Below, piece by piece: positions 1 to 12,493 of a stretch of DNA of 14,127 nt. Under the pieces are notes generated by a model. That model worked only from the letters and a program-made list of their open reading frames with translations, did no database searches and was not told where the DNA came from. The translations under genes were made by a program, and so were the position numbers. The stretch spans positions 1 to 14,127 of the IMG/VR virus record IMGVR_UViG_3300021399_000006, one strand, 5' to 3'. Numbering within the stretch: position 1 is the first letter of the stretch; every line of letters starts with the position of its first letter. Source of the DNA: a virus.

Positions 1-138
1 CCCATTCACATCAGGGGCTTTAGGTCTCACTGTATGTAGCCGGATTCACCCTTCCTATCCCCCACTCATACAGGATGGTTGATCGTTTTTATACCGCATC
101 TCCATTCTACGGTCAACTGAGCATTTGGCTCAGTTCAA

Positions 139-220
139 GCCAGCAATAGGATTTGAACCTATATCGTATTAGGCCTTACACTCCTTGGGGGAGCCGCTTT
201 ACCAATTAAGCTATACTGAC
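139..220 (-). tRNA. tRNA-like, class II length (82 nt), irregular anticodon arm; possible pseudogene
   Basis: T-arm ATAGG-TTCAAAT-CCTAT (146-162). Acceptor GTCAGTA/TGCTGGC pairs 7/7 with two G.U. D-arm GCTT/AAGC. The anticodon stem only folds with a 5-nt loop (CCCAA). The long variable region is about 18 nt. Confidence 0.4.
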
Positions 221-231
221 ATTTTTTTAGC

Positions 232-302
232 AGGGCCGGCGGGGTTCGAACCCACAAATGCAGGAATCAAAATCCTGTGTCTTACCGTTTGACTACGGCC
301 CT
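232..302 (-). tRNA. tRNA-Gln (anticodon TTG)
   Basis: Full cloverleaf: acceptor AGGGCCG/CGGCCCT, D-stem GTC/GAC, anticodon stem CAGGA/TCCTG with loop TTTTGAT, T-arm GTGGG-TTCGAAC-CCCGC, discriminator G. Confidence 0.85.
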
Positions 303-322
303 GTATACAAGAGACATTATTA

Positions 323-393
323 GTAGACCACGGGATTCGAACCCGTATATCAAAATTCGCAGTTTTGTATCTTATCCATTAGATTAAATCCAT
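323..393 (-). tRNA. tRNA with anticodon GCG (Arg); weak acceptor stem
   Basis: T-arm ACGGG-TTCGAAT-CCCGT (330-346). Anticodon stem CAAAA/TTTTG with loop CTGCGAA. D-stem ATCT/AGAT. The acceptor ATGGATT/GGTCTAC has an A1xC72 mismatch and three G.U pairs. Confidence 0.5.
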
Positions 394-439
394 TAATTTT
401 TTTTATTGCTGTGTGTCTCTTTATCAACTTTCTAAATAT

Positions 440-468
440 ATTATAATAAAAATTTTTATTTTTTTCAA
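440..468 (-). promoter_or_regulatory. sigma70-type promoter TTGAAA-17-TATAAT
   Basis: -35 at 463-468 and -10 at 440-445 (reverse complement), exact 17-nt spacer; drives leader and tRNAs at 393-139. Confidence 0.65.
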
Positions 469-472
469 ATAA

Positions 473-546
473 GCACAGAGTGGGATTTGAACCCACGAAT
501 AACGGTTTTGCAGACCGTTGCGGTAACCAGGCTGCGCCATCCGTGC
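473..546 (-). tRNA. tRNA-Cys (anticodon GCA)
   Basis: Acceptor GCACGGA/TCTGTGC, U8 and G9 present, anticodon stem ACGGT/ACCGT with loop CTGCAAA, T-arm GTGGG-TTCAAAT-CCCAC (480-496). Confidence 0.85.
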
Positions 547-587
547 AAAAAAGGTATGAAACATATAAATTTCACACCCCTTTTAAA

Positions 588-776
588 TTAATCAGCTGAT
601 TTTGCTTCAATATATTTAGGTTTAATTATAACTCGTTTTCGTAACGCATGAGTTGTCTGGAACATGCGGAAACGTGCTTCCCGCCTTGCTTCTTCTCGTT
701 CTTTTTTATCCTCAATATCATTAACAGGATTAAAAGACTCTAGGGCATTAGTGCCTACTGTTTTCCATTTAGACAT
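588..776 (-). CDS. hypothetical small protein (62 aa, basic/acidic)
   Basis: ORF with SD AAAGGAG about 8 nt upstream of ATG, TAA stop, co-directional with the operon. Confidence 0.6.
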   Translation of the reverse strand: MSKWKTVGTNALESFNPVNDIEDKKEREEARREARFRMFQTTHALRKRVIIKPKYIEAKSAD

Positions 777-788
777 TAATTTACTCCT

Positions 789-1175
789 TTAGTTAAGAAA
801 ACCTTCAAGAATTTTTACAAATTCATTACGGGTGATAGGGGTTGCCGCAGGTCTCTTTTCTTCTTTTGTCTCTTTTGTCTTTTTCTCTGAAGGCTGTTCT
901 AGAATTACTTCTACTAAATCTGCCAACCAAGGGGTTTCCTTCTCATATGTTTTAATATACTCAACAACTTCTTTGTTAAGAGCTTCAATCTTATCCTCAA
1001 GTCTTGCTCTTGCAAAAGCCTTTTCTGCTTCAAACTGTTTACGCTTTTCTGCTTCTTTACGACGTTTCTCTTCCGCTTCTGCCTCTGCCTTTTTTCTTTC
1101 ACTATCAAATTCGGCTTCAATACATTCTTTTTCTGAATCAAAAAACTCATCCAGAATTTCACTATAAAATTTCAT
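789..1175 (-). CDS. hypothetical E/K-rich coiled-coil protein (128 aa)
   Basis: ORF; SD GAGGAAAAAAGA-ATG; TAA stop; charged heptad-like repeats (AEAEAEEKRRKEAEKRK). Confidence 0.65.
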   Translation of the reverse strand: MKFYSEILDEFFDSEKECIEAEFDSERKKAEAEAEEKRRKEAEKRKQFEAEKAFARARLEDKIEALNKEVVEYIKTYEKETPWLADLVEVILEQPSEKKTKETKEEKRPAATPITRNEFVKILEGFLN

Positions 1176-1215
1176 TCTTTTTTCCTCTCTTTTTAAAATA
1201 TTTTATTAACGAAAG

Positions 1216-1288
1216 GTGGCTAACGGGACTTGAACCCGTAACAAGCGGTACCACAAACCGCTGGACTACCAAATTGTCCTATAACCAC
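1216..1288 (-). tRNA. tRNA-His (anticodon GTG)
   Basis: T-arm ACGGG-TTCAAGT-CCCGT (1223-1239). Anticodon stem GCGGT/ACCGC with loop TTGTGGT. D-stem GGAC/GTCC. Acceptor GTGGTTA/TAGCCAC. Discriminator C, as expected for His. Confidence 0.85.
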
Positions 1289-1291
1289 AGC

Positions 1292-1365
1292 TGGAGTGAC
1301 AGGATTTGAACCTGCGATACCGTGATCCCAAATCACGTGCCTTAACCAAACTAGACTACACCCCA
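1292..1365 (-). tRNA. tRNA-Pro (anticodon TGG)
   Basis: T-arm GCAGG-TTCAAAT-CCTGT (1299-1315). Anticodon stem CGTGA/TCACG with loop TTTGGGA. Acceptor TGGGGTG/CACTCCA. Confidence 0.85.
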
Positions 1366-1387
1366 ATATACAAGACACATAAATAAG

Positions 1388-1411
1388 TATTGATCTACCC
1401 ATTGATCTATT
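1388..1411. repeat. tandem direct repeat ATTGATCTAccc / ATTGATCTAttt
   Basis: Two adjacent 9/12-nt identical units between the T-arm element and tRNA-Pro. Confidence 0.4.
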
Positions 1412-1425
1412 TTGTTTTTCCTGGC

Positions 1426-1487
1426 AACAAAAATGGGATTTGAACCCATAACATATACTTTAGAGTATAAATTGCTGTATGTGTCTT
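1426..1487 (-). ncRNA. truncated tRNA-like element (T-arm plus 3' acceptor-like tail plus hairpin; no D-arm or 5' acceptor)
   Basis: T-arm ATGGG-TTCAAAT-CCCAT (1433-1449) preceded by the hairpin TATAC-TCTAAA-GTATA, whose 6-nt loop contains CUA. Upstream box AAGACACATACAGCAAT. No complementary 5' acceptor strand is found. Confidence 0.4.
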
Positions 1488-1499
1488 ATTATTAAATTA

Positions 1500-1733
1500 T
1501 TAACTTAACATAGCAAAATCTATAAATTTTTTTATATCATCTGCATTATAACAAACTAATTCCATTTCAGGAATGTCTGAATCTTCAAACATTTTAGCAA
1601 AAGCAATATATTGAGTAAGACGACTCTTTAGATTTAATCTATCGCCTTCTCCTGTTACTAATTCAACTTTTCCTGTACATTTGTCAACTGTTTCAAAAAA
1701 CTTTTCAATATCACTAATATGATATAACTTCAT
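1500..1733 (-). CDS. hypothetical protein (77 aa)
   Basis: ORF with SD AAAAGGAGAATAA-ATG; TAA stop. Confidence 0.6.
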   Translation of the reverse strand: MKLYHISDIEKFFETVDKCTGKVELVTGEGDRLNLKSRLTQYIAFAKMFEDSDIPEMELVCYNADDIKKFIDFAMLS

Positions 1734-1854
1734 TTATTCTCCTTTTATATAATCTCTATAAGCACAATATTCATCAAATGTTCCTTTGAATCCATTATTA
1801 ACAGCTTTAAGATATTCTTTGTTTAAAACAACTGAAAAATTAGTTTCCTACTAA

Positions 1855-2154
1855 TTAACTTGCATTACCGATTGCTAACTCATATTCTCTTTCCCTTTCT
1901 GCCATTGCGACAAGGCGTTTTACATCTGAATGATACCAATGTTTACCACCTCGTCTACCTTTTTCTGCCCCAAAAGCAGGTCTATGCTTTTTAGTTTTCC
2001 CGCTACAAAGAGGACAAGAGCAATGAACTTTATTCTTACTATATTGATGCAAATTATTATACCATGAGAAATGGTAAACTTGTTCTGAAATATTTCTTTT
2101 TCTAATTGCTTTTGTTACGCTATTGTGTCTTTTTTCTGCCAAAGTTCTACACAT
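1855..2154 (-). CDS. hypothetical basic Cys/His-containing protein (100 aa)
   Basis: ATG at 2154 is preceded by AAAGGAG at optimal spacing. The track ORF 1855..2307 extends upstream only through a TTG codon across the T-arm element, and that frame is closed by TAA at 2344-2346. Confidence 0.65.
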   Translation of the reverse strand: MCRTLAEKRHNSVTKAIRKRNISEQVYHFSWYNNLHQYSKNKVHCSCPLCSGKTKKHRPAFGAEKGRRGGKHWYHSDVKRLVAMAEREREYELAIGNAS

Positions 2155-2200
2155 AATAAACTCCTTTGAAACTTGATTAACGAAACATTTAACAATTAGC

Positions 2201-2224
2201 GGTGCGAGAGGGATTCGAACCCCC
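2201..2224 (-). ncRNA. T-arm plus 3' acceptor strand of a split/giant tRNA-like structure (see finding at 2201-2750)
   Basis: GGGGG-TTCGAAT-CCCTC followed by TCGCACC. There is no local anticodon or D arm. The matching 5' acceptor GGTGCGG lies about 545 nt upstream on the same strand. Confidence 0.45.
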
Positions 2225-2278
2225 AGCCCAATTAAGAGCAACGGTTTTGAAACGGTTTTAGAAGTTTTTAATAACCTC

Positions 2279-2683
2279 CTAAAAAATATAATCTTTAGCA
2301 AAATCAATATTTGCTGTTTGTCCAGATTTTGTTGGTAAAACTCTTAAAGTTTTTTCTACAAAACCATCTTTAGGAGCAGGATATAAATAAAAAATACCAT
2401 CTTTTTCAGTCATAAAAAAATCTATTTCTTTATTTGTATATTTCATTCTTTTGTTTCCTGCTCCTGTTGAATGCTGGCTATATCCATTAAAAACAAATGC
2501 ACTATGCTCTTCATCCTTCCATCGAGATGTTTTAATTTGTATTTTTAATAGTTTATTATCTACATCTAAAATAAAATCATATCTTGCATTATCAAACAGT
2601 GGTTTAGAAACAATAAAACCTGCTTCTATACATTTTAAGAAACATTTTTGCTATGTCATTGCTCCTTGAATTTGTGTATTCAT
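2279..2683 (-). CDS. hypothetical protein (about 134 codons) containing one internal in-frame TAG (2651-2653); possible nuclease-like (D..D.K) core
   Basis: Reading frame ATG(2683) NTQIQGAMT-TAG-QKCFLKCIEAGFIVSKPLFDNARYDFILDVDNKLLKIQIKTSRWKDEEHSAFVFNGYSQHSTGAGNKRMKYTNKEIDFFMTEKDGIFYLYPAPKDGFVEKTLRVLPTKSGQTANIDFAKDYIF. It is open for about 122 codons after the TAG in AT-rich DNA and ends at TAG 2279-2281 (next TAA 2258-2260). No well-spaced SD; the start is uncertain. Confidence 0.45.
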
Positions 2684-2934
2684 ATTATTATTTTTAAAAC
2701 TAATAATTCCGTTTCAAGACCGCACCTCCTCCCCACTAAGGTACCGCACCATATCAAGGCTTAAAAAGTTTCATTTTCTCTTTTTTCAGAGGTCAATTCC
2801 TATTAAGAATAAGAAATAGAAAACTTTCAAATAAAAGAAACTTGTCTATTTTACGACCAAAATTCTCCTAAGAATCATGTTAAATCTTGTAATTTTCAAC
2901 CCATTAAAAATAAAATTGCCGTATAAGCCTTAGC

Positions 2935-3021
2935 GCGGATGAGTGGATTCGAACCACCGGACCCAAATGTAGGATCAATACCTTAGCAGGGTACCGCATT
3001 AAACCTCTCTGCCACATCCGC
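2935..3021 (-). tRNA. tRNA-Ser (anticodon GCT), class II
   Basis: Perfect 7-bp acceptor GCGGATG/CATCCGC. T-arm GGTGG-TTCGAAT-CCACT. Anticodon stem TACC/GGTA with loop CTGCTAA. Long variable arm. Length 87 nt. Confidence 0.85.
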
Positions 3022-3032
3022 AAATAGGTAAC

Positions 3033-3104
3033 CACCCTTCTGGGATTCGAACCCAGGACTGTTGATTTAGAGTCAACTGACTTAGACCGCTTGTCGAAAG
3101 GGCG
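3033..3104 (-). tRNA. suppressor tRNA, anticodon CTA (reads UAG amber)
   Basis: Acceptor CGCCCTT/AAGGGTG (one G.U), U8 present, D-stem GAC/GTC, anticodon stem GTTGA/TCAAC with canonical 7-nt loop C-U-CUA-A-A, T-arm CTGGG-TTCGAAT-CCCAG, discriminator G. D-loop and discriminator are similar to the neighbouring tRNA-Gln. Confidence 0.8.
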
Positions 3105-3203
3105 TCACCAAGACAGATTAAAATTTGCTTAAATTAGATTAACAGTCCAATACAAAAATTAAAATAAATTGCTGTTTCTGTCTTTCTTTCATCTTATAAA
3201 TAT

Positions 3204-3232
3204 ATTATATAATAATTTTTTTAAAAAATCAA
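3204..3232 (-). promoter_or_regulatory. sigma70-type promoter TTGATT-17-TATAAT, followed by the conserved ATGAAAGAAAGACAGAAACAGCAA leader
   Basis: -35 at 3227-3232, -10 at 3204-3209. The first gene downstream is the CTA suppressor tRNA. Confidence 0.65.
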
Positions 3233-3243
3233 AAAATTTTTAA

Positions 3244-3354
3244 ATGCGGGCAAGGATTTGCACCTTACATGCCCTAATAGCCTTTATGCTACCAGACGTA
3301 TCGGATTATACTGGGGCTTACCTTATAAGCGTCTACCTATTCCGCCACCGCATT
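3244..3354 (-). tRNA. tRNA-Leu-like gene of aberrant length (about 111 nt) with an extra insertion between D-arm and anticodon arm; possible pseudogene or intron-like insert
   Basis: 5' region AATGCGG-T-G-GCGGAATAGGTAGACGC nearly matches the 5' region of the bona fide tRNA-Leu(CAA) here. T-arm TAAGG-TGCAAAT-CCTTG with acceptor 3' CCCGCAT. The middle region only folds as TTATA..(13 nt)..TATAA plus GTAGC-ATAAAG-GCTAT (6-nt loop). Confidence 0.4.
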
Positions 3355-3358
3355 TTTA

Positions 3359-3601
3359 TTATATTTTATATTTATATTCACTTATAATTTTACCATTTTC
3401 ATCAATATGCCATGTATGAGCACATTTAAAAGGATAATTTGCCTTATAAAGATTAATCCAAATATTTCCTCTTGGACAAAACCAATTTGCATAATTATAT
3501 CTTGCATTCATAGCATCATCAAAAGAAGTAAAAAGTTCTTTTATGCTCCCAGAATGTTCGTCATCTTCTGTTTCAATAGCATAAATATCAAAATTTAACA
3601 T
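3359..3601 (-). CDS. hypothetical protein (80 aa)
   Basis: ORF; SD AAAGGAG 9 nt upstream; follows tRNA-Val after a 40-nt gap (co-transcribed). Confidence 0.6.
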   Translation of the reverse strand: MLNFDIYAIETEDDEHSGSIKELFTSFDDAMNARYNYANWFCPRGNIWINLYKANYPFKCAHTWHIDENGKIISEYKYKI

Positions 3602-3640
3602 AAAGCAAATCTCCTTTAAAATATATTTTTAAAACGAAAT

Positions 3641-3713
3641 GCATGATATAGGATTTGAACCTATGACCCTTTCGGTGTAAACGAAATGCTCATCCCAGCT
3701 GAGCTAATCATGC
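3641..3713 (-). tRNA. tRNA-Val (anticodon TAC)
   Basis: Perfect acceptor GCATGAT/ATCATGC. D-stem GCTC/GAGC. Anticodon stem TTTCG/CGAAA with loop TTTACAC. T-arm ATAGG-TTCAAAT-CCTAT. Confidence 0.9.
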
Positions 3714-3888
3714 ATATTGGCGGGAATCTCTTTCCCGCCTAATCCGACTTTTGAATTTCACAGGTATCGGGGAGGGACCAGGGATTAAATCCAGCCCACC
3801 TTAATACTTAGTTTTCAAACATTCCTCACGAAAACTAAAAAAATGGAGGGTCTTCCATATCGCACGTGCATATTGATATAGAATAAGT

Positions 3889-3963
3889 GGACCTTATGGG
3901 AATCGAACCCATCTGACTACTAGTGTGCAAAACTAGTGACCACCCCTTGCAGTCCCAAAGCCC
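3889..3963 (-). tRNA. tRNA-Ala (anticodon TGC)
   Basis: Acceptor GGGCTTT/AAGGTCC with the G3.U70 Ala identity pair. Anticodon stem CTAGT/ACTAG with loop TTTGCAC. T-arm ATGGG-TTCGATT-CCCAT. Confidence 0.8.
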
Positions 3964-4172
3964 AGTACTAAGAGGCCTGATTACCCTCTTTATAGCAGTT
4001 TGATCCTGCTTGCCAATGACGTTATAGGTCCGCCGCCCGCACATTTATTTGCTAAAACACGGTTTCCAGGGTATCTTCGTATAGTCACATTACCGCAAAG
4101 AGATATATACCTTTATCATATTATAGACGCGTTTCTATAATATTCTCCCAAAATTTCTATTGTACATAGAAT

Positions 4173-4245
4173 ACTACGAAGTGGATTCGAACCACTGACG
4201 ACTTCCTTATCAGAGAAGCATTCTAACCTACTGAATTATCGTAGT
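4173..4245 (-). tRNA. tRNA-Ile (anticodon GAT)
   Basis: Perfect acceptor ACTACGA/TCGTAGT. Anticodon stem CTTCT/GGAAG with loop CTGATAA. T-arm AGTGG-TTCGAAT-CCACT. Confidence 0.85.
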
Positions 4246-4422
4246 AAATAAGGGTTAAAAAGAAAGGAAGAAACGCGTTTTTCTTTCATTGAATAACCTT
4301 TCTCAATTAACCATCTAATTTTTATGCCTGCCTAGCCTTACACTAGAATATTACATATGTGATAAGTTGTTCTGTTGCATCGCTATTTTGAACTATCCCT
4401 GTCTCCTTATCAAAATTAGACA

Positions 4423-4445
4423 CCTGCGCGGCCGCAGGCTTTTTG
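4423..4445. terminator. GC-rich hairpin (CCTGCG-CGGC-CGCAGG, contains GCGGCCGC) with a T5 run on the plus side and a weaker T-run on the minus side; probable end of the tRNA-Tyr/Phe transcription unit
   Basis: On the plus strand the stem is followed by CTTTTTG. On the minus strand it is preceded by AAAAAG and followed by TGTCTAATTTTG. It lies 16 nt downstream of the tRNA-Tyr 3' end. Confidence 0.45.
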
Positions 4446-4461
4446 CGGCGTCCCGCTTAGT

Positions 4462-4544
4462 CCTGGCGGAGGGAATCGAACCCACTCGGTGCCGAAGCCA
4501 GCAGATTTACAGTCTGCCCCGTCTCCTTAGCGGTCTACCCCAGG
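4462..4544 (-). tRNA. tRNA-Tyr (anticodon GTA), class II
   Basis: Anticodon stem GCAGA/TCTGC with loop CTGTAAA. Variable-arm hairpin present. T-arm GTGGG-TTCGATT-CCCTC (one mismatch). Acceptor CCTGGGG/CGCCAGG (one mismatch). Length 83 nt. Confidence 0.8.
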
Positions 4545-4552
4545 ATAAAAGT

Positions 4553-4625
4553 GCTCAGAACTAGATTTGAACTAGTAACGCGAGGATCTTCAGTCCTCCG
4601 CTCTACCTATTAGAGCTATCTGAGC
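4553..4625 (-). tRNA. tRNA-Phe (anticodon GAA)
   Basis: Perfect acceptor GCTCAGA/TCTGAGC. Anticodon stem GAGGA/TCCTC with loop CTGAAGA. T-arm ACTAG-TTCAAAT-CTAGT. Confidence 0.9.
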
Positions 4626-4703
4626 ATAACAAGACATATAATTTGTAAATAATGACTGTTTACGAGACAGTTGTCTTAACCATTTGACTACATAAGCGAC
4701 AAT

Positions 4704-4766
4704 GCTTGTGACAGGATTCGAACCTGTAAACTTACAAAAGTAAGAAGTTGCTGTATATGTCTTTGT
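4704..4766 (-). ncRNA. truncated tRNA-like element (T-arm plus 3' tail plus tetraloop hairpin), paralogous to the element at 1426-1487
   Basis: T-arm ACAGG-TTCGAAT-CCTGT (4711-4727), hairpin CTTAC-TTTT-GTAAG, upstream box AAGACATATACAGCAAC (15/17 identical to the box at 1471-1487). No 5' acceptor. Confidence 0.4.
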
Positions 4767-4834
4767 TTTTATGGATTCTTTATTTTATTTGATGTTGGTG
4801 CAGTTATTTGCCTAAATCCATATAAGCCAACAAT

Positions 4835-4914
4835 AATTCTGGTGGGATTCGAACCCACATGCCTATGACCGCAGGGTTTGAGCCTACTGCGTATACCAAT
4901 TCCGCCACAGAATC
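4835..4914 (-). tRNA. tRNA-Leu (anticodon CAA), class II
   Basis: 5' GATTCTG-T-G-GCGGAATTGGTATACGC. Anticodon stem GTAGG/CCTGC with loop CTCAAAC. 12-nt variable arm. T-arm GTGGG-TTCGAAT-CCCAC. Acceptor 3' CAGAATT. Confidence 0.85.
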
Positions 4915-4916
4915 GT

Positions 4917-4999
4917 AGTGGCGAAGGGATTCGAACCCTCAATCCTCTAACGGCAACGGATTTTAAGTCCGTCATGAATACCAGTTCCATCACGCCACC
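4917..4999 (-). tRNA. tRNA-Leu (anticodon TAA), class II
   Basis: Anticodon stem ACGGA/TCCGT with loop CTTAAAA. 15-nt variable arm. T-arm GAGGG-TTCGAAT-CCCTT. Acceptor GGTGGCG/CGCCACT. It nearly abuts the preceding tRNA. Confidence 0.85.
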
Positions 5000-5093
5000 A
5001 TATAAATTTAAACGGTTATAAAGATAAAATTTTATTATTTTTCTATTTTAACAGGGAAAAATAATAAAAGCCTGTCTAACAATTTAATAATGA

Positions 5094-5462
5094 TTACTGC
5101 TCACGAGAAGCAATAAACGCATCATATTCATCCTTGAAGCACCAAGCAAATCCATAAGCGTTATGGGTCTTAGTTCTTCCGTTTAAGGCATCGCCTACGC
5201 CTGACTTACCTTCCTGGCCAATTGCGGCAAGGGCTTCCTTCTGGGTTGCAAACTCTGCAATAACTGCATAAGTCTCGGGGTCAAGCTGAAGAACACCTGA
5301 CTTATTCGGACTCTTACGCTTACGAGCAGCTGCCGCCTCATCTTCCTCAATACGAGCAAGCATTGCTCGCAAAGCATCCATAGTCTGCTCACGAATACCT
5401 TCATTTACATCTGTAGCATTTTCAAAGTAGAAAATCAAACCTTCAATCTGTTTCTTATCCAT
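5094..5462 (-). CDS. hypothetical protein (122 aa)
   Basis: ORF with SD AAAAGGAGTAAAT-ATG, driven by a perfect-consensus promoter at 5504-5532; TAA stop. Confidence 0.7.
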   Translation of the reverse strand: MDKKQIEGLIFYFENATDVNEGIREQTMDALRAMLARIEEDEAAAARKRKSPNKSGVLQLDPETYAVIAEFATQKEALAAIGQEGKSGVGDALNGRTKTHNAYGFAWCFKDEYDAFIASREQ

Positions 5463-5503
5463 ATTTACTCCTTTTTACTCTTGTTTTTAATTTCTATAAA
5501 TAT

Positions 5504-5532
5504 ATTATACTAAAAATTTTTTATCTTGTCAA
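5504..5532 (-). promoter_or_regulatory. perfect-consensus sigma70 promoter TTGACA-17-TATAAT
   Basis: -35 at 5527-5532, -10 at 5504-5509; upstream of the SD-ATG at 5462. Confidence 0.75.
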
Positions 5533-6179
5533 CAATTGAATAACTTAATTATATCTATGAATAACACCCCTTCGGGTTGCTGGCAATAACCTTCTCTTAT
5601 ATTCGACCACCAAGGAGACATACCTGAGCGGTTAGGAGCGACCTAAACGCTATATGCCCCATCTGTTCAAGACAGATAAATCTTGTAGAGGACTTTGCAT
5701 ACCTCTAACTTTCAGCTACCTTTCAGAAAATTTACATAATAACTTGTATAAGAAGTTATTCAAATTTTGTTGTCTACGCACTTTTAGCCTACTCGTACCT
5801 TGACCCAATCTTATACACGACTTCCGCCGCTTCATGTGCGCTAACCCCTTATGGAAATTCCAAGGTTTGCAAAGTTTTCCACGCTTCACCTAACTTGGAT
5901 TAGTGCTCTCGTTAAAGAACCCTATATTATGGAGTCGATTGGAACAGTGTCTTTAAGAGCGATTACCCCAGTGCTATTGACTAAACCATTTCTTTAGACC
6001 TGGCGTTTTATACGTCACCGCATAAAAACTTTTTTCCTAAGAAAGTATCCTTCCTTATTCTGGTTATTCGTAAAGCCAATACCTCAGCGTCATGGAATTG
6101 ACGTTTATCACTGAGTTGCTTCATAAATATAACTAAATTATTCAATTGTCAATGTTCTTTTGTTGATAATTCAACATAG

Positions 6180-6249
6180 ATCTCAAGTAGGGGTCGAACC
6201 TACATCTTACCTTTTTACCAGGCGCGCACTACCATTATGCTACTGAGAT
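6180..6249 (-). tRNA. tRNA-like gene with atypical anticodon loop GGUAAAA (possible anticodon TAA, G at position 33)
   Basis: Good acceptor ATCTCAG/TTGAGAT. U8-A9. D-stem GCAT/GTGC. T-arm GTAGG-TTCGACC-CCTAC. The anticodon stem pairs 4/5. Confidence 0.45.
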
Positions 6250-6461
6250 TCCTTATATATGTATATCATCAGAAAGGAAGTGAATATAAAAAGGGATAAA
6301 CCCATTTATAACAATGCAAAGGGGAGTAGCGTGTAGCACTATCATCTAATGTTCTCCCTAGTTTTTGTTTTGGAATTTCGCCAAAAGGACTTATTTGAAA
6401 TATTGGAGAGTGCTTAGTCTCGTAATCCTTCACAGGGCTTTTTCGGTAGCCTGAACCTAAT

Positions 6462-6534
6462 AGCGGAAGTGGGATTTGAACCCACGTGATACGGCGTATG
6501 AGACCGCGCTGGTACCTCTCCAGTCCATTCCGCA
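6462..6534 (-). tRNA. tRNA-Met (anticodon CAT; whether initiator, elongator or Ile-lysidine type is undetermined)
   Basis: T-arm GTGGG-TTCAAAT-CCCAC. Anticodon stem GCGGT/GCCGT (two G.U) with loop CTCATAC. D-stem CTGG/CCAG. The acceptor has a mismatch at pair 1-72. Confidence 0.65.
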
Positions 6535-6635
6535 ATATTAATCAAGACAGTTTAAAATATAGCCTATTTAATCCTAAATTTAAATGCTTGTATTTTTTCT
6601 TTTGTTGCTGTTTCTGTCTTTCATTTTCTATAAAT

Positions 6636-6664
6636 ATTATAACAAAAATTTTTTTAAAAATCAA
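6636..6664 (-). promoter_or_regulatory. promoter TTGATT-17-TGTTATAAT (extended -10)
   Basis: -35 at 6659-6664, -10 at 6636-6641, TGn present; drives leader and tRNA-Met. Confidence 0.7.
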
Positions 6665-6854
6665 ATACGGCATATGCATCTACCGTATTAGTCTATGAGG
6701 TTTACCACTCCGCTTACCATTTTCCGCTCAGGTTAGCTTTAGGAGCCTTGCTGATGTTTTTACACTTTACTAAAACACCCTTTCCGACAGACAAACAGTC
6801 AACCTACTTATATTAATATCATTGCCTAAGGTTATATTAATACTTTTGGTAAAT

Positions 6855-6910
6855 GCTCTATGCAGGAGTCGAACCTACACTCACAAAAGTAAGTTCCATC
6901 ATAATAGAGC
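6855..6910 (-). ncRNA. 56-nt 'armless' tRNA-like minihelix (perfect 7-bp acceptor plus T-arm plus one tetraloop hairpin; no D-arm or anticodon arm)
   Basis: GCTCTAT ... CTTAC-TTTT-GTGAG ... GTAGG-TTCGACT-CCTGC ... ATAGAGC with discriminator A. The hairpin resembles the one in the 4704-4766 element. Confidence 0.45.
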
Positions 6911-6990
6911 AGTCTCCTTTTATCTCTCTTATATTTTAAAAGAGCCAAAAAATAATGCTCTGAAAGAGGAAAGTATGATACGTATCAAGT

Positions 6991-7063
6991 AGCCCCTGGG
7001 GGAATTGAACCCACCATCTTGACCTTGAAAGGGTCATATCCTGTCCTTTTAGAAGAAGGAGCC
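6991..7063 (-). tRNA. tRNA-Glu (anticodon TTC)
   Basis: Anticodon stem TGACC/GGTCA with loop CTTTCAA. T-arm GTGGG-TTCAATT-CCCCC. Acceptor GGCTCCT/AGGGGCT (all paired including G.U). Confidence 0.85.
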
Positions 7064-7087
7064 ATATTTCTTTCATTTTCTATAAAT

Positions 7088-7116
7088 ATTATAATAAAAA
7101 TTTTTTAAAATTGCAA
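7088..7116 (-). promoter_or_regulatory. promoter TTGCAA-17-TATAAT
   Basis: -35 at 7111-7116, -10 at 7088-7093; drives tRNA-Glu(TTC) after a leader of about 20 nt. Confidence 0.65.
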
Positions 7117-7266
7117 ATAAAAATGGGAACTTATATTAACACTGTATTCCCCGATAGGTTTGCGCGCGCCTTATCTTACAGCGGGTTTTCCTAAGTCCAG
7201 TTTTCCTTGTCATTCCCATGCATTTATATACCGAGCGAGAACAGACGCGGTTAAGGAGTCCTTAGT

Positions 7267-7346
7267 AGGGGACACGGGATTCGAACCCGCACGCACAGGG
7301 CACTAGATCCTAAGTCTAGGGTGGCTACCAGTTACACCAATCCCCC
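7267..7346 (-). tRNA. tRNA-Leu (anticodon TAG), class II
   Basis: Acceptor GGGGGAT/GTCCCCT. U8-G9. D-stem GTG/CAC. Anticodon stem CTAGA/TCTAG with loop CTTAGGA. 12-nt variable arm. T-arm GCGGG-TTCGAAT-CCCGT. Confidence 0.85.
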
Positions 7347-7518
7347 ATATAAGATAGATGCTTGCCATAGCTTTAGCCCCGCTCGGGTATCTATCGTACC
7401 CTATCTCATTCACTGGAGATGCAGTAAAAGTTTTACCTTTATAACTTTCAAAGATACTTATTCTTCATCGGGCGATAAGTTCTTACCTGACCCTTTCCCT
7501 TCACACCTCAAAGGATGA

Positions 7519-7585
7519 AAACGGCTATAATTTCAATAGCTTAGATTTACATTGGCAGAAGGTAAATCAACTTCTTTTTTACTCA
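7519..7585. repeat. copy A of a repeat unit (cggctat ... caaNagcttagatttaca ... gaaggtaaaNcaacttc)
   Basis: Shares three blocks with copy B. It contains the hairpins GCTAT-AATTTCA-ATAGC and AGAAG-GTAAATCAA-CTTCT. Confidence 0.5.
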
Positions 7586-7651
7586 AATTTTAAAAATTTG
7601 AGATAGGTTGAACCTACACCTAAAGGACTTTTTCCAGTAACACCCCAAAAA

Positions 7652-7740
7652 GCAAAGCGGCTATCTATCAACAGCTTAGATTTACACATTCAACCGAGTA
7701 GATTTACGTATTAATAGGAAGGTAAACCAACTTCCTAACG
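7652..7740. repeat. copy B of the same repeat unit, with a 31-nt internal insertion that duplicates tagatttac
   Basis: Hairpin GGAAG-GTAAACCAA-CTTCC, where the outer pair covaries (A-T in copy A, G-C in copy B). Confidence 0.5.
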
Positions 7741-7810
7741 ACCTAGTGGGGAATTGAACCCCAGTCTCTCGGGCGACAACCGAGTGTAATTACCTTTATA
7801 CGACAAGGCC
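7740..7810 (-). tRNA. tRNA-Asp (anticodon GTC)
   Basis: Anticodon stem CTCGG/CCGAG with loop TTGTCGC. T-arm TGGGG-TTCAATT-CCCCA. Acceptor GGCCTTG/CTAGGTC (one mismatch). Confidence 0.8.
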
Positions 7811-7997
7811 AAACATTAAATAGCTTAGTCCATTTTTTAGGCTCCCTTCTCACTATAGCCTAAATTCCACAGGTCATGACTCCTGTTACTCTAGGTAGTT
7901 CACTTATAGTCTCACTCTCCCGACTTCCGTGATTTGGCGGACTCTCTTGATGTTTATGTACACTATTAAATCAAGTCACCATTGCTATTTATGTAGC

Positions 7998-8070
7998 GGG
8001 AGCAGTAGGACTTGAACCTACGACATTTTGCTTAACAGGCAAACGCTCTAACCAACTGAGCTATACTCCC
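7998..8070 (-). tRNA. tRNA-Asn (anticodon GTT)
   Basis: Acceptor GGGAGTA/TGCTCCC. Anticodon stem TTTGC/GCAAA with loop CTGTTAA. T-arm GTAGG-TTCAAGT-CCTAC. Confidence 0.9.
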
Positions 8071-8217
8071 AAATATGAGGGTTACTTTGCGTCTTTTATA
8101 CCGTTTCCCACTAAAGCCACATATCATACGCCTCCAGACGGGCTAATAAGAATCGAGTCTGGATATTTGGTTATGCCGGTGGTAGTTTACCCTCAAAATC
8201 CATGATAACGGTTTAAT

Positions 8218-8291
8218 CATCCCTACAGGCTTTGAACCTGTGTTTCAAGATTGAGAATCTTGTGTCCTGAACCGAACTAGACGAAGGGACG
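8218..8291 (-). tRNA. tRNA-Glu (anticodon CTC)
   Basis: Anticodon stem CAAGA/TCTTG with loop TTCTCAA. T-arm ACAGG-TTCAAAG-CCTGT. Acceptor CGTCCCT/AGGGATG. Confidence 0.85.
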
Positions 8292-8300
8292 ACGGATTAA

Positions 8301-8480
8301 TTAATCCTCATATTCTGTACGTACATAATTTTCTGTTACTTCATAATGAAATCCAATCCAACCAAATCTATCTTCCAAAAATCTCACAGCAGAGAAGCCT
8401 TTAACAAATGTTATATGCTTCTGATTTACATCGTCAAGATACTCAACCATGTAGATAACAGCTGTTCTCTCATTTTTCAT
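8301..8480 (-). CDS. possible small protein (59 aa, below the ORF-track cutoff)
   Basis: ATG at 8480; frame MKNERTAVIYMVEYLDDVNQKHITFVKGFSAVRFLEDRFGWIGFHYEVTENYVRTEYED-TAA; immediately downstream of promoter 8547-8575; weak SD. Confidence 0.35.
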   Translation of the reverse strand: MKNERTAVIYMVEYLDDVNQKHITFVKGFSAVRFLEDRFGWIGFHYEVTENYVRTEYED

Positions 8481-8546
8481 AATTTAAAGACCCCCTGAAA
8501 TGATATTTTTTAGTTTGTTTTCGTTTCTTTTTCTTACGATATAAAT

Positions 8547-8575
8547 ATTATAACAAAAAATTTTTAAAAATTCAA
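8547..8575 (-). promoter_or_regulatory. promoter TTGAAT-17-TGTTATAAT (extended -10)
   Basis: -35 at 8570-8575, -10 at 8547-8552; drives the small ORF and tRNA-Glu(CTC). Confidence 0.7.
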
Positions 8576-8711
8576 ATGATATGCAGTGTGCTGTTACGCC
8601 AAAGGGAAGTCAGTCCTTACCAGTTACGGGGTGACTTTCTACTTCTATTTAATAAAATAGTCCCACTCTTTAAAAGATGGATGCTTTTAATCCTACTTTC
8701 TGCATATAAGA

Positions 8712-8783
8712 GCCACCGACAGGAATTGAACCTGCAACCGTTTGATTACAAATCAAATGCACTACCAATTGTGCTACGGGGGC
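8712..8783 (-). tRNA. tRNA-Thr (anticodon TGT)
   Basis: Anticodon stem TTTGA/TCAAA with loop TTTGTAA. T-arm GCAGG-TTCAATT-CCTGT. Acceptor GCCCCCG/CGGTGGC (one mismatch). Confidence 0.8.
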
Positions 8784-8787
8784 ATAT

Positions 8788-8860
8788 GGACCACTAGGGA
8801 TTTGAACCCTAATCTGACAGATTAAGAGTCTGCTATGTTAACCGTTAACACCAGTAATCC
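8788..8860 (-). tRNA. tRNA-Lys (anticodon CTT)
   Basis: Anticodon stem GCAGA/TCTGT with loop CTCTTAA. T-arm TAGGG-TTCAAAT-CCCTA. Acceptor GGATTAC/GTGGTCC (G.U pairs). D-stem GTGT/ACAT. Confidence 0.8.
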
Positions 8861-8971
8861 AGGTTTATACAGCTACATACCTACCATATCAGGACATTAC
8901 TCTGATTTTCTAAGTTTTTCTTAGTATGCTATGATTTTACATTATATGGTGTTATGGACCCTGTATAACAT

Positions 8972-9043
8972 GCGCTCGATGGGACTCGAACCCACGTTAC
9001 CTTGATTAAAAGTCAAGTGCTTAATCCGCTAAGCTACGAGCGC
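8972..9043 (-). tRNA. tRNA-Lys (anticodon TTT)
   Basis: Perfect acceptor GCGCTCG/CGAGCGC. Anticodon stem CTTGA/TCAAG with loop CTTTTAA. T-arm GTGGG-TTCGAGT-CCCAT. Confidence 0.9.
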
Positions 9044-9118
9044 AAAAGATATTTAATTGTTTTTTGCCCGTAGGCTTACGTTTTCGTTTCATTTCTTATC
9101 TCCTCACTTTGTATAAAT

Positions 9119-9147
9119 ATTATAACAAAAATTTTTTAAAATTTCAA
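9119..9147 (-). promoter_or_regulatory. promoter TTGAAA-17-TGTTATAAT (extended -10)
   Basis: -35 at 9142-9147, -10 at 9119-9124. It sits immediately downstream of tRNA-Gly(GCC) and drives tRNA-Lys(TTT). Confidence 0.7.
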
Positions 9148-9152
9148 ATAGA

Positions 9153-9223
9153 GCAGACAGTGGGAATTGAACCCACATTTTTAGCTTGGCAAGCTAACAT
9201 ATTAACCGTTATATTATGCCTGC
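9153..9223 (-). tRNA. tRNA-Gly (anticodon GCC)
   Basis: Anticodon stem TTAGC/GCTAA with loop TTGCCAA. T-arm GTGGG-TTCAATT-CCCAC. Acceptor GCAGGCA/TGTCTGC. Confidence 0.85.
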
Positions 9224-9422
9224 TTGAACTAGGATATATGGCCAACTTACCTAGATATATTTTAGCACCTTACCAGGCCGCACTTATTTTAACTACCATG
9301 TGCAATTGGCTGCGTGTTCACCATACCGCTGGATTGATTTACGATCAACAACGCCTTATCTCTACATTACGAATTGAATAAGGTACAATCGTCTCTATTA
9401 AAACTCAACCCGAGAAGGGTCA

Positions 9423-9493
9423 GCCCCATGTGGGAATCGAACCCACCTATCTAGCTTGGAAGGCTAGCATTTTAGCCGATAAATCAATGGGAC
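9423..9493 (-). tRNA. tRNA-Gly (anticodon TCC)
   Basis: Anticodon stem CTAGC/GCTAG with loop CTTCCAA. T-arm GTGGG-TTCGATT-CCCAC. Acceptor GTCCCAT/ATGGGGC. Confidence 0.85.
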
Positions 9494-9500
9494 AAATATA

Positions 9501-9561
9501 AAAACTATTAAAGGTACGTTTTATTGGTGGTATGCGGCACGCACTTGATTTTAATAGTTTT
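9501..9561 (-). promoter_or_regulatory. leader stem-loop (12-bp inverted repeat AAAACTATTAAA / TTTAATAGTTTT enclosing a GC hairpin) followed by a T-rich tract, between the promoter and the tRNA-Gly genes; possible attenuator or processing site
   Basis: Perfect 12-bp arms at 9501-9512 and 9550-9561, nested inner stem TGCG/CGCA, then TTTTTATATTT before the tRNA 5' end. Confidence 0.4.
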
Positions 9562-9577
9562 TATTTGTTATGATAAT

Positions 9578-9606
9578 ATTATATCAAAAATTTTTGAACA
9601 TTTCAA
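9578..9606 (-). promoter_or_regulatory. promoter TTGAAA-17-TGATATAAT
   Basis: -35 at 9601-9606, -10 at 9578-9583; followed by a structured leader before tRNA-Gly(TCC). Confidence 0.7.
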
Positions 9607-9620
9607 ATTATTTTTGACCT

Positions 9621-9920
9621 TTATTTAGAAAAATAATATTTCCGCCAATATTTATAAAAATCTTTTAATGTAGGATAATCTTCTTGCCAAAGACTTCCAT
9701 TAGGGTCAGGATGAAAATATTCAAATTTAGCATCTTCCCATGTCCATCTACTAATATAATCATGTATATCGTAGGTTTCAAAGACTTTTTTATAAGCATT
9801 TCCATTAGGAAGAATAATTTTACTATGTCTTATTTTTTTATTTGCGTGTCTTTTGTTTCTTTTAGGAGTAGGCGTACGCCCATCTGTATAAACAGGATTC
9901 TTTTTATATGAACGTGACAT
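9621..9920 (-). CDS. hypothetical basic protein (99 aa)
   Basis: ORF; SD AAAGGAGAAAAAT-ATG; TAA stop. Confidence 0.65.
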   Translation of the reverse strand: MSRSYKKNPVYTDGRTPTPKRNKRHANKKIRHSKIILPNGNAYKKVFETYDIHDYISRWTWEDAKFEYFHPDPNGSLWQEDYPTLKDFYKYWRKYYFSK

Positions 9921-9936
9921 ATTTTTCTCCTTTAAT

Positions 9937-10007
9937 TGCGGGGATAGGATTCGAACCTACAATCACCGGGTCAAAAACCGGCCGCTTTACCGTTAGCGTA
10001 CCCCGCG
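9937..10007 (-). tRNA. unusual tRNA with an E. coli tRNA-fMet-like acceptor stem (CGCGGGG ... CCCCGCA-A, C1xA72) and an 8-nt anticodon loop UUUUUGAC (UUG or UUU reading; Gln-like D-loop)
   Basis: T-arm GTAGG-TTCGAAT-CCTAT. D-stem CGCT/AGCG perfect. The anticodon stem GCCGG/CCGGT closes an 8-nt loop. D-loop AACGGTAA and loop TTTTGAx resemble the tRNA-Gln at 232-302. Confidence 0.5.
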
Positions 10008-10143
10008 TACTTATCATACCATTTCACCTGTTTTGTGGCTAGCTATTCCACCCCACCGTGCTCATCACTATTATTTTAATCATTCCCTTGGTAATACTCT
10101 TTGATAAGTATAATACATATTTTGACGTCTTGTATGTATTAGT

Positions 10144-10217
10144 AGGGGACCTGGGACTCGAACCCAGGACACGCACCTTATAAGGATGCTGCTCTCACCT
10201 GACTGAGCTAGTCCCCT
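10144..10217 (-). tRNA. tRNA-Ile (anticodon TAT, reads AUA)
   Basis: Perfect acceptor AGGGGAC/GTCCCCT. D-stem GCTC/GAGC. Anticodon stem GCATC/GGTGC with loop CTTATAA. T-arm CTGGG-TTCGAGT-CCCAG. Confidence 0.8.
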
Positions 10218-10254
10218 AAACGGGATATTTTTTATCCCTTAACTTTATAATAAT

Positions 10255-10283
10255 ATTATAACAAAAAATTTTTAAAAATACAA
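10255..10283 (-). promoter_or_regulatory. promoter TTGTAT-17-TGTTATAAT
   Basis: -35 at 10278-10283 (4/6 match), consensus extended -10 at 10255-10260; drives tRNA-Ile(TAT). Confidence 0.55.
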
Positions 10284-10292
10284 ATTAATTTT

Positions 10293-10580
10293 TTAACAAA
10301 TCATAAATTTTCTATTGCGGGCTTCCCGATTAATCCATAACGTATATTTATGGCAATCATCATAATTCCATTTCCACAAAAGGACATTAGCATCTTTAGA
10401 ATAGTGAAAGTCAAAAGCATGATAATCATTTTTAAGTATCATTATATAATCAGTTAAACTGATATTTAACATACGTGCGGGAAACCACCAATAATTGCTA
10501 CCGTGAGCCAAATCAGAAACGTCCCCTGAATACCAATTTCCATTAGATTCCCACTCAGTATATTTCATAATATGGCTCAT
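10293..10580 (-). CDS. hypothetical Trp/Tyr-rich protein (95 aa)
   Basis: ORF; SD TAAGGAG 7 nt upstream; TAA stop. Confidence 0.65.
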   Translation of the reverse strand: MSHIMKYTEWESNGNWYSGDVSDLAHGSNYWWFPARMLNISLTDYIMILKNDYHAFDFHYSKDANVLLWKWNYDDCHKYTLWINREARNRKFMIC

Positions 10581-10589
10581 AATAACTCC

Positions 10590-10898
10590 TTATAGATTTA
10601 GAGCGGCAATTAAATCTGCAACATTCTGTTTTTCTTCTTCGGTTACTTCTGCAGGGTTAATAGTTTTTTCTGTCGGGGTACCGAAAGCTGATGGAGCGGC
10701 CGCACCAAACGCACTTTTAAGTTCGCCTGAACCCATATTAGATTTAGCCGCAGTCAAAGTAACTTTAATTTCTACAACCCCACTACCTTCACTCATCGGG
10801 ATACGAAGAATCTTACCTTCATCTTCCCAAAAAGCATCGGGATAAACCCGTTTCAATTCCGCAAAGATTAGATTTTTACTTTCTGTGCCTTTTGCCAT
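10590..10898 (-). CDS. hypothetical protein (102 aa), Ala/Gly-rich middle segment
   Basis: ORF; SD AAAGGAGAAATGAA-ATG; promoter at 10927-10955; TAA stop. Confidence 0.65.
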   Translation of the reverse strand: MAKGTESKNLIFAELKRVYPDAFWEDEGKILRIPMSEGSGVVEIKVTLTAAKSNMGSGELKSAFGAAAPSAFGTPTEKTINPAEVTEEEKQNVADLIAALNL

Positions 10899-10926
10899 TT
10901 CATTTCTCCTTTATTTTTATAAATAT

Positions 10927-10955
10927 ATTTTACTAAAATTTTTCAATTTTTTCAA
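10927..10955 (-). promoter_or_regulatory. promoter TTGAAA-17-TAAAAT
   Basis: -35 at 10950-10955, -10 at 10927-10932; upstream of the CDS at 10590-10898. Confidence 0.5.
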
Positions 10956-10980
10956 ATCGCATATTTTTTTGATTTAACGA

Positions 10981-11655: not shown

Positions 11656-11755
11656 TTTAGGTTTATACCTAATACTAATTTCTATTTTATCTTTATTGAA
11701 ATATTTAAAATTCCTATAAAATGGTATCTAAAATTTCATCCTAATCCTATCCTTT

Positions 11756-12394: not shown

Positions 12395-12427
12395 ATATTA
12401 ATTATTCTCCTTTTATTTTATATTTTT

Positions 12428-12456
12428 ATTATAACAAAAAAAATAAAAAAAATCAA
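12428..12456 (-). promoter_or_regulatory. promoter TTGATT-17-TGTTATAAT; the -35 overlaps the upstream terminator stem
   Basis: -35 at 12451-12456, -10 at 12428-12433, TGn present; drives the CDS at 11756-12394. Confidence 0.65.
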
Positions 12457-12482
12457 AGAGACCCCGTAAAGGTATCTCTTTG
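12454..12482 (-). terminator. rho-independent terminator after the 286-aa gene
   Basis: Hairpin CAAAGAGA(cc)-CCGTAAA-(gg)TATCTCTTTG followed on the minus strand by ATTTTTTTTATTTTTTTTG. Confidence 0.7.
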
Positions 12483-12493
12483 ATTTTAGAGAA

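Follow-up and report, generated by a model that had tools for sequence, protein, structure and literature searches.

A repeated, probably strong promoter cassette in the tRNA- and ROOL-bearing region of an uncultured sheep-rumen phage

The stretch of DNA analyzed here (the window, 14,127 nucleotides, positions 1 to 14,127 of IMG/VR record IMGVR_UViG_3300021399_000006) comes from an uncultured phage of the sheep rumen, and its recognizable genes all lie on the minus strand. ARAGORN called 28 tRNAs, to which Rfam adds three further tRNA-like matches, and a full-length ROOL RNA occupies positions 5545-6139 (-) (RF03087; 276.7 bits against a gathering score of 99.1). About a dozen small open reading frames (ORFs) complete the gene content. 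The region is ORFan-rich: Pfam scans of 10 window ORFs gave no match, the PHROGs matches are only to families of unknown function, and megablast found no match to the window among 50,697 deposited phage genomes. Between these genes recurs a short promoter-like cassette, the subject of this work, with 12 copies, all on the minus strand.

A repeat finder recovered the cassette as a direct-repeat family of 12 members, whose -10 elements (ATTATA on the plus strand) start at positions 440, 3204, 5504, 6636, 7088, 8547, 9119, 9578, 10255, 10927, 12428, and 13658; these positions also serve below to designate the copies. The recurrence described in the initial annotation, made from the sequence alone, was thus borne out at 12/12 positions by the repeat finder, a position weight matrix (PWM), and shuffled controls, as was its description of copies 10927 and 13658 as degenerate. 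Anchored on the -10, the minus-strand consensus reads aTTTGAAA / 17 bp / TATAAT / ATTTATA. The 17-bp spacer between -35 and -10 is present in every copy, TATAAT is exact in 11 of the 12 (TAAAAT in copy 10927), and the -35 retains TTG in 11/12 and TTGA in 9/12, the exceptions being TTGCAA (7088), TTGTAT (10255), and TTTATT (13658). Half of the copies (6/12) also carry TG at -15/-14, which together with preceding T's constitutes the extended -10, or Gram-positive -16 region. These canonical hexamers, their spacing, and the TG support the earlier reading of the sites as minus-strand promoters of the form TTGAMW-17-(TGn)TATAAT.

Searching with a 30-mer consensus and up to three mismatches gave five matches, compared to none in 200 shuffles. 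The leave-one-out PWM scores of the 12 copies range from 17.7 to 51.4 bits, while 100 dinucleotide shuffles peaked at 14.6 bits, and the set is sharply bounded since the 13th-best minus-strand site scores only 8.9 bits. The copies also top a generic sigma-70 scan of the window. The repeated cassette is real, and is probably a promoter family for the host's main RNA polymerase.

Mean pairwise identity among the copies is 0.73 in the -35, 0.69 in the spacer, 0.97 in the -10, and 0.74 in the next seven bases, then 0.52 from +8 to +20 and 0.33 in the 10 nt upstream of the -35, for a random expectation of 0.38. The cassette therefore begins some 3 nt ahead of the -35 and ends some 10-20 nt beyond the -10. 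Conservation reaches outside both hexamers, into the spacer, the discriminator, and the first transcribed bases, not only in the window but lineage-wide.

The seven bases after the -10 are AT-only, with A at position 7 in 12/12 copies and T at position 6 in 11/12. Transcription usually starts about 7 nt after the -10, with a pyrimidine at -1 and a purine at +1, and because of this rule ATTTAT is most likely the untranscribed discriminator and the next A the +1. Of the conserved box previously placed just downstream of the -10, the ATTTAT-A part holds, whereas the verbatim sequence does not: GAAAATGAAAGA is found nearly unchanged in three copies only (3204, 6636, and 7088). Copies 440, 3204, and 6636 have in common a longer T-poor leader, GA(A/T)AAAGA..CA.A.ACAGCAA, ending in CAGCAA. 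The remaining copies share only A/G-richness, and in those that lead ORFs the purine stretch is the Shine-Dalgarno (SD) sequence. A promoter-less remnant supposed to lie at 4283-4300 was not confirmed, as it has only ATGAAAGAAA in common with the cassettes, is preceded by the SD-like GAGAAAGG, and gives no PWM signal. We also rejected a leaderless mini-ORF starting from the ATG in GAAAATGAAAGA: the resulting ORFs have merely 14-17 codons and no SD, the 46-codon reading at 7088 overlaps a tRNA-like gene, a 4-nt indel shifts the frame between 3204 and 6636, and a relative has GTG at this place.

The cassettes are always intergenic, co-oriented with the genes, and irregularly spaced (0.45-2.8 kb). 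All 12 aim either at a tRNA, located 25-101 nt after the -10, or at an SD and ATG, 29-42 nt after it. A terminator-like hairpin with its 3' arm or T-run overlapping the -35 is seen at 3/12 copies (13658, 12428, and 6636), and copies 440, 3204, and 9119 start within a few bases of the 3' end of a preceding tRNA or tRNA-like gene. Because each cassette points at a gene, with hairpins or tRNA 3' ends at several of the -35s, the region is divided into about 12 short units with one promoter each. The 12 promoters in 14 kb would split the tRNA/ROOL/small-ORF region into separately driven units, several of them insulated by the hairpin terminator or tRNA 3' end that abuts or overlaps the -35.

The 22-base cassette core occurs in at least 118 stretches of IMG/VR, mostly contigs of 80-190 kb from rumen and gut metagenomes. 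Loci L001-L118 were picked for one exact cassette match each, and L119-L121 were found independently by protein homology; these last (86%, 49%, and 36% identity) each hold 8-14 co-oriented cassettes. An identical copy of the 286-aa window ORF is encoded on a sheep-rumen scaffold of 132,990 bp (L177), which is near-identical to the window and was treated as the same phage extended beyond it.

The 86% relative, L119, has orthologues for 12/12 window cassettes. Identity over the 12 orthologous pairs is 0.94 in the -35, 0.88 in the spacer, 0.99 in the -10, and 0.95 in the discriminator, compared to 0.78 in positions +1 to +10 of the initial transcribed sequence (ITS) and about 0.6 in the flanks. 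The two defective hexamers of the window (TAAAAT and TTGTAT) are consensus in L119, an indication that the promoter itself is under purifying selection. Identity between cassettes of the same genome is 0.67, against 0.60-0.68 between genomes; as the first value barely exceeds the second, a functional optimum common to all of them explains the uniformity better than recent copying does. Concerted evolution toward a genome-specific "dialect" found no support as a general explanation, within- and between-genome identities being nearly equal except for L121 and L135.

These comparisons make it very improbable that the repeats are non-functional leftovers of segmental duplications (promoter plus leader), or iterons, packaging sites, or partition sites that mimic a promoter in AT-rich DNA. 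The leader shared by copies 440, 3204, and 6636 does continue for about 35 nt past the promoter, which is what a duplication would produce. However, similarity ends at the cassette edges in most copies (the identity of 0.33 over the upstream 10 nt), the purifying selection at orthologous sites is focused on the hexamers, and the sites, always between co-oriented genes and at irregular distances, show the same consensus in distant genomes.

A lineage logo was built from 508 sites in related contigs, anchored on TTGNNN-17-TATAAT alone and with the search-pattern matches left out. It is T-rich after the -35, with AAAA in mid-spacer, TnTG before the -10 (T 0.86, T/A, T 0.91, G 0.66), and ATATATA(T/G)AA after it. 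Position 7 after the -10 is a purine at a frequency of 0.90, and A/G are enriched and C/T depleted up to about +22. Out of 435 cassettes in related loci, 57% lie ahead of an SD and start codon and 13% ahead of a tRNA. On L177, the 10 kb upstream of the window position also carry cassettes, at lower density, with a back-to-back pair exactly where gene orientation diverges. As the cassettes of relatives mostly precede protein genes and the L177 pair sits at the orientation switch, the cassette is a promoter of general use in the lineage and is not specific to tRNAs.

In bacterial assemblies, the cassette core was found in 53 stretches, with complete cassettes only in Bacillota genomes or metagenome-assembled genomes (MAGs) and phage-like contigs. 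Where it occurs in several co-oriented copies, the contigs are phage-like and were binned with MAGs of Bacilli, Erysipelotrichaceae, and Clostridia. Other Bacillota have complete cassettes in single copy; the one inspected, in an isolate (Oscillibacter), adjoins a resolvase and probably lies on a mobile element. The matches outside Bacillota lack a -35 and look like chance. The best cultured match of the 286-aa ORF is a hypothetical protein of Bacillus phage SP-10 (Herelleviridae, 33% identity), strong SD sequences are present in the leaders, and a neighboring gene contains CW_7. Because of these four lines (SD-rich leaders, CW_7 match, Herelleviridae best match, and cassette-bearing assemblies), a Gram-positive (Bacillota) host is suggested, though not decisively.

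Since the hexamers and their spacing are those of the primary sigma factor, recognition by host sigma-A is the simplest reading. We consider it likely that the cassette is the lineage's standard strong promoter, used by the host primary-sigma holoenzyme (sigma-A in Bacillota) with no phage factor required. In this scheme, sigma regions 4 and 2 would bind the -35 (TTGAAA/TTGACA) and the -10 (TATAAT) at 17 bp, and the TG at -15/-14 would add an extended -10 contact in the six copies that have it. The A-tract/T-tract spacer (TTTTAAAAAATTTTTG) would act like the "spacer UP element" of the T5 promoter N25, bending the DNA or anchoring it on the polymerase, while the AT-only discriminator ATTTAT should melt easily. 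Transcription is predicted to start at the invariant A, seven bases after the -10 and with T at -1, and the first 20 or so transcribed bases, rich in A/G and poor in T and C, would allow fast promoter escape.

Agreement with the distal UP-subsite consensus AAAWWTWTTTT, centered at -17 to -20, is 10/11 positions or better in ten of the 12 spacers; lineage-wide, 50% of spacers reach this level compared to 11% for shuffled spacers. The N25 spacer has a 91% UP-subsite match centered at -19. This element has been suggested to bend the spacer and to strengthen its anchoring on sigma region 3, and the alpha-subunit C-terminal domain uses it during escape (PMC12464699). A purine-rich ITS favors promoter escape, with "anti" versions performing about 10-fold worse, and variation in this sequence alters output up to 25-fold (PMC12464699).

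Several points weigh against the sigma-A interpretation. The +1 position, the promoter activity, and the timing are predictions from sequence, as are the choice of polymerase, the strength, and the roles given to the spacer and the ITS, and the assignment to sigma-A presumes a Bacillota host. Conservation of the spacer exceeds that of most bacterial promoter sets, and an extra protein could be reading its uniform sequence. Ahead of the -35, the logo shows weak A-richness (A 0.45-0.52, at most 0.13 bits, 8-11 nt upstream) and the window copies are not conserved, so that there is no clear counterpart of the classical -43 UP element of T5 promoters. The selection of L001-L118 by an exact match inflates the similarity between genomes, although L119-L121 agree nonetheless.

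Alternatively, the conserved spacer, discriminator, and ITS could form the site of a phage-encoded factor (a sigma appropriator, activator, repressor, or anti-terminator loader) that imposes a phage-specific temporal program on the host sigma. Consistent with this, the strong conservation outside the hexamers persists where phage proteins are only 36-49% identical, and the spacer core AAAAATTTTT is its own reverse complement. However, all the conserved blocks can be explained without such a factor, the precedent being T5 promoters, which the naked host polymerase transcribes. The conserved positions are low-information A/T tracts with no defined dyad operator, no candidate factor was identified, and the -35 is intact and properly spaced, unlike in appropriated promoters of the MotA/AsiA type. 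We regard such a factor as improbable, and the earlier suggestion of a phage-specific signal or factor site "rather than just sigma70" finds no support, the extra conserved features being known determinants of promoter strength. A broader version is still quite unlikely: the spacer of unusual uniformity (T4-A6-T5-G), together with an AT-only discriminator and a start of the AGAAAAT type, present clade-wide in 80-190 kb uncultured rumen/gut Bacillota phages, would be either a signal for a conserved phage protein or a homology "linker" maintained for the shuffling of tRNAs, ROOL, and ORFans. If true, the cassette would be more than a strong host promoter.

The canonical -35 and -10 at 17 bp also distinguish the cassette from promoters of alternative or appropriated sigma factors, such as T4 late (TATAAATA), T4 middle (MotA box), and SPO1 gp28 or gp33-34 promoters. 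Read on the plus strand, the element might resemble a T4-late-type TATAAATA or a Bacteroidota-type promoter (TTTG / TAnnTTTG), given that TATAAATA is found on this strand in seven copies and that the -35 region reads ATTTGA. We see virtually no chance of this and ruled both types out: the minus strand bears every tRNA and every supported ORF, relatives with an ATATATA discriminator have lost TATAAATA, no copy has TAnnTTTG, and the leaders carry strong SDs, which Bacteroidota lack.

By its sequence, the cassette family is the same kind of strong early promoter that is already known from phages such as T5. The T5 early promoters (N25, P25/26/28, and the H207 class) likewise comprise many near-consensus primary-sigma promoters across early and tRNA regions, which host RNA polymerase uses unaided (PMC12464699). 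Three of them (P32, P35, and P37) contain TATAATATTTATA, the -10 and discriminator 13-mer found identically in cassettes 6636, 7088, 8547, and 9119. T-rich sequence and TG before the -10 are common to both families, as are the A/T-tract "spacer UP element" of N25 (AAAATTTTT; the N25 query sequence is 100% identical to T5) and a conserved, purine-rich initial transcribed region that controls promoter escape. In the T5 annotation (AY587007), the block from -10 to ITS of these promoters is marked "repeat b" or "repeat c", so that the repeated block noticed in the window has a long-known counterpart. The two systems differ in that T5 has enterobacterial hosts, sigma-70, and a TTGCTT -35 in place of TTGAAA/TTGACA; the A/T block near -43 to -49 is clear in T5 and faint here, whereas the mid-spacer A-tract is far more uniform here. 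As there is no sequence homology between T5 and the window phage, the resemblance is, on sequence grounds, convergent.

The cassettes reveal no new mechanism, and their value is mainly practical. They provide a ready promoter model (PWM and predicted +1) for annotating transcription units in a large group of uncultured rumen and gut phages, including the unit that likely expresses ROOL RNA together with tRNAs. They would also replicate, in nature and by independent evolution, the N25-type design of T5 (UP-like spacer, extended -10, AT discriminator, and purine-rich ITS), which supports the idea that these features maximize promoter output generally, in both Bacillota and E. coli. In low-GC Gram-positive hosts, they could be put to use as strong, portable promoters.

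Among phages of Bacillota, the Herelleviridae (CKA15, the kayviruses, and the host-takeover module of SPO1) offer a second comparison, with genomes of 130-170 kb and tRNA clusters with abundant non-coding RNAs (ncRNAs) nearby. In Listeria phage CKA15, ONT-cappable-seq identified SigA-like early promoters (TTGACTT and ATGxTATACT) conserved beyond the hexamers, some of which drive abundant non-coding loci next to tRNAs (PMC12282133). The early promoters of SPO1 form a visible family of their own around TTGACT, and a strict-pattern scan of the SPO1 terminal redundancy gave few matches. The window cassettes differ from those of Herelleviridae in having TATAAT instead of TATACT, and in the A6T5 spacer. 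Membership of the window phage in this family would rest on the one match at 33% identity. Voskuil and Chambliss in 1998, and Helmann in 1995, reportedly described the Gram-positive "-16 region" (TRTG) of extended -10 promoters. The window copies similarly have T-n-T-G immediately upstream of TATAAT, but mostly as TTTG rather than TRTG, while the distant relative L121 has TATG, which fits TRTG.

The cassettes might also act as linkers for recombination, as do the PeSLs of T4-like phages, strong early promoters with a stem-loop attached, whose repeated copies bring about the shuffling of modules (PMC2839356, PMC4122927). Such a function, which would shuffle tRNA, ORFan, and ncRNA modules and is compatible with the promoter role, seems unlikely though conceivable. 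The resemblance includes strong sigma-70-type early promoters combined, here in some copies, with stem-loop terminators and dense in plastic, ORFan-rich regions beside an SD and ATG. Besides the three -35s overlapped by a hairpin and the three copies abutting a tRNA 3' end, about 20% of the lineage cassettes have a strong hairpin at the -35 (-12 kcal/mol or lower), compared to 1-4% of controls. Several indels relative to L119, comprising whole small ORFs or non-coding inserts, lie exactly at a cassette edge or bring their own cassette, and 6 of the 17 junctions at synteny breaks between the two sequences touch a cassette. This number is significant in a naive whole-window binomial test (P = 4e-4) but not in a permutation restricted to intergenic sequence, which expects 4.5 junctions at cassettes (P = 0.28). 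Moreover, the indels inspected include no clean deletion from one cassette to another, and the cassettes show no genome-specific homogenization. Contrary to PeSLs, a stem-loop accompanies only about a quarter of the copies, without polyG/polyC stems, and the cassettes are not restricted to a single plastic region. A recombination role is possible but unsupported.

The 12 copies, numbered by increasing coordinate on the minus strand, are arranged as follows. Copy 1 (420-472; -35 TTGAAA at 463-468, -10 TATAAT at 440-445, predicted +1 A 433) would drive tRNA-Arg/Gln/Trp, the first tRNA lying 46 nt after the -10, and its -35 is abutted by the 3' end of tRNA-Cys (472). Copy 2 (3184-3236; TTGATT at 3227-3232, -10 at 3204-3209, predicted +1 3197) has the leader AAGATGAAAGAAAGACAGAAACAGCAA, with a tRNA(CUA) 100 nt after the -10. 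Copy 3 (5484-5536; TTGACA at 5527-5532, -10 at 5504-5509, predicted +1 5497) matches the consensus hexamers at 12/12 positions, precedes the SD AAAGGAG and ATG of a 122-aa ORF at 5462, and starts 13 nt past the ROOL 3' end. Copy 4 (6616-6668; TTGATT at 6659-6664, TGT-TATAAT with the -10 at 6636-6641, predicted +1 6629) has the leader AGAAAATGAAAGACAGAAACAGCAA, followed by tRNA-Met, tRNA-Leu(taa) (6179-6249), and directly after it ROOL, for which it is the closest upstream promoter; ROOL is probably co-transcribed with the two tRNAs. A terminator-like hairpin of 9 bp (6664-6689) ends within its -35. Downstream of copy 5 (7068-7120; TTGCAA at 7111-7116, -10 at 7088-7093, predicted +1 7081), a tRNA-Glu-like gene (6990-7063) begins 25 nt after the -10. 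The spacer of copy 6 (8527-8579; TTGAAT at 8570-8575, TGT-TATAAT with the -10 at 8547-8552, predicted +1 8540) is AAAAATTTTTT, an 11/11 match to the distal UP-subsite consensus.

Copy 7 (9099-9151; TTGAAA at 9142-9147, TGT-TATAAT with the -10 at 9119-9124, predicted +1 9112) has the top score (52 bits). It precedes GAGGAG and the ATG of a 23-codon ORF, then tRNA-Lys, and is abutted by the tRNA-Gly 3' end (9151). A tRNA-Gly follows 85 nt after the -10 of copy 8 (9558-9610; TTGAAA at 9601-9606, TGA-TATAAT with the -10 at 9578-9583, predicted +1 9571), and tRNA-Ile(tat) 38 nt after that of copy 9 (10235-10287; TTGTAT at 10278-10283, TTGAAT in L119; TGT-TATAAT with the -10 at 10255-10260, predicted +1 10248). 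The last three copies lead an SD and the ATG of an ORF: the degenerate copy 10 (10907-10959; TTGAAA at 10950-10955, TAAAAT at 10927-10932, TATAAT in L119; predicted +1 10920) a 102-aa ORF at 10898, copy 11 (12408-12460; TTGATT at 12451-12456, TGT-TATAAT with the -10 at 12428-12433, predicted +1 12421) a 212-aa ORF at 12394, and copy 12, the weakest (13638-13690; TTTATT at 13681-13686, TATAAT at 13658-13663, predicted +1 13651), a 79-aa ORF at 13620. At copy 11, a hairpin at 12451-12485 (-17.2 kcal/mol for the 68-nt stretch folded, z = -3.4) overlaps the -35 with its 3' arm and is followed by a T-run. At copy 12, the T-run of a terminator-like hairpin (13686-13706, 9 bp, 5 GC, z = -2.97) forms the -35 and the spacer, giving a composite terminator/promoter.

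Several of the neighboring RNA genes are unusual. The tRNA with anticodon CUA at 3032-3104 (-), labeled "Pyl" by ARAGORN (Rfam tRNA, 56.4 bits), is of the amber-suppressor type, whose presence can point to recoding of TAG in some genes of gut and rumen phages. At 9936-10007 (-), a tRNA (Rfam, 50.8 bits; anticodon "tttg" according to ARAGORN) seems to have an anticodon loop of 8 nt; its counterpart is not called by ARAGORN in L119, and it may be quadruplet-decoding or degenerate. tRNA-like sequences without an ARAGORN call are found on the minus strand at 6990-7063 (Rfam, 42.9 bits; its L119 orthologue is called tRNA-Glu(ttc)), 4633-4697, 6854-6910, and about 3243-3352. The last, whose 3' end adjoins cassette 3204, resembles a type-II (Leu-like) tRNA bearing an insertion. 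Directly upstream of tRNA-Pro, positions 1369-1487 (-) weakly resemble the Y RNA-like YrlA (RF02553; E = 0.007, and 29.3 bits where the gathering score is 69), with a T-loop-like motif at 1433-1452; this may be a tRNA-like ncRNA or a chance match.

Gene content also varies around the cassettes. GC content is about 25% at 11000-12500, across the 212-aa and 224-aa ORFs, compared to 31-41% elsewhere in the window. Since the same place in the near-identical L177 holds other ORFs (229 and 269 aa), this segment is a variable module. Beyond the high-coordinate end of the window, about 0.4-2 kb upstream, L177 encodes at 7901-9643 a 580-aa protein with matches to Lactamase_B / anti-Pycsar Apyc1 and weak ones to CW_7; genes for GH114, SprT-like, isochorismatase, and metallophosphatase proteins adjoin it. 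The 580-aa protein may be a nuclease directed against host defense, and its cell-wall-binding domain would fit a Gram-positive host. Finally, L119 carries GC-richer non-coding inserts beside cassettes at 14733-14990 and about 19060-19207, one of them with its own cassette at 19016; both are missing from the window and may be additional small structured RNAs.

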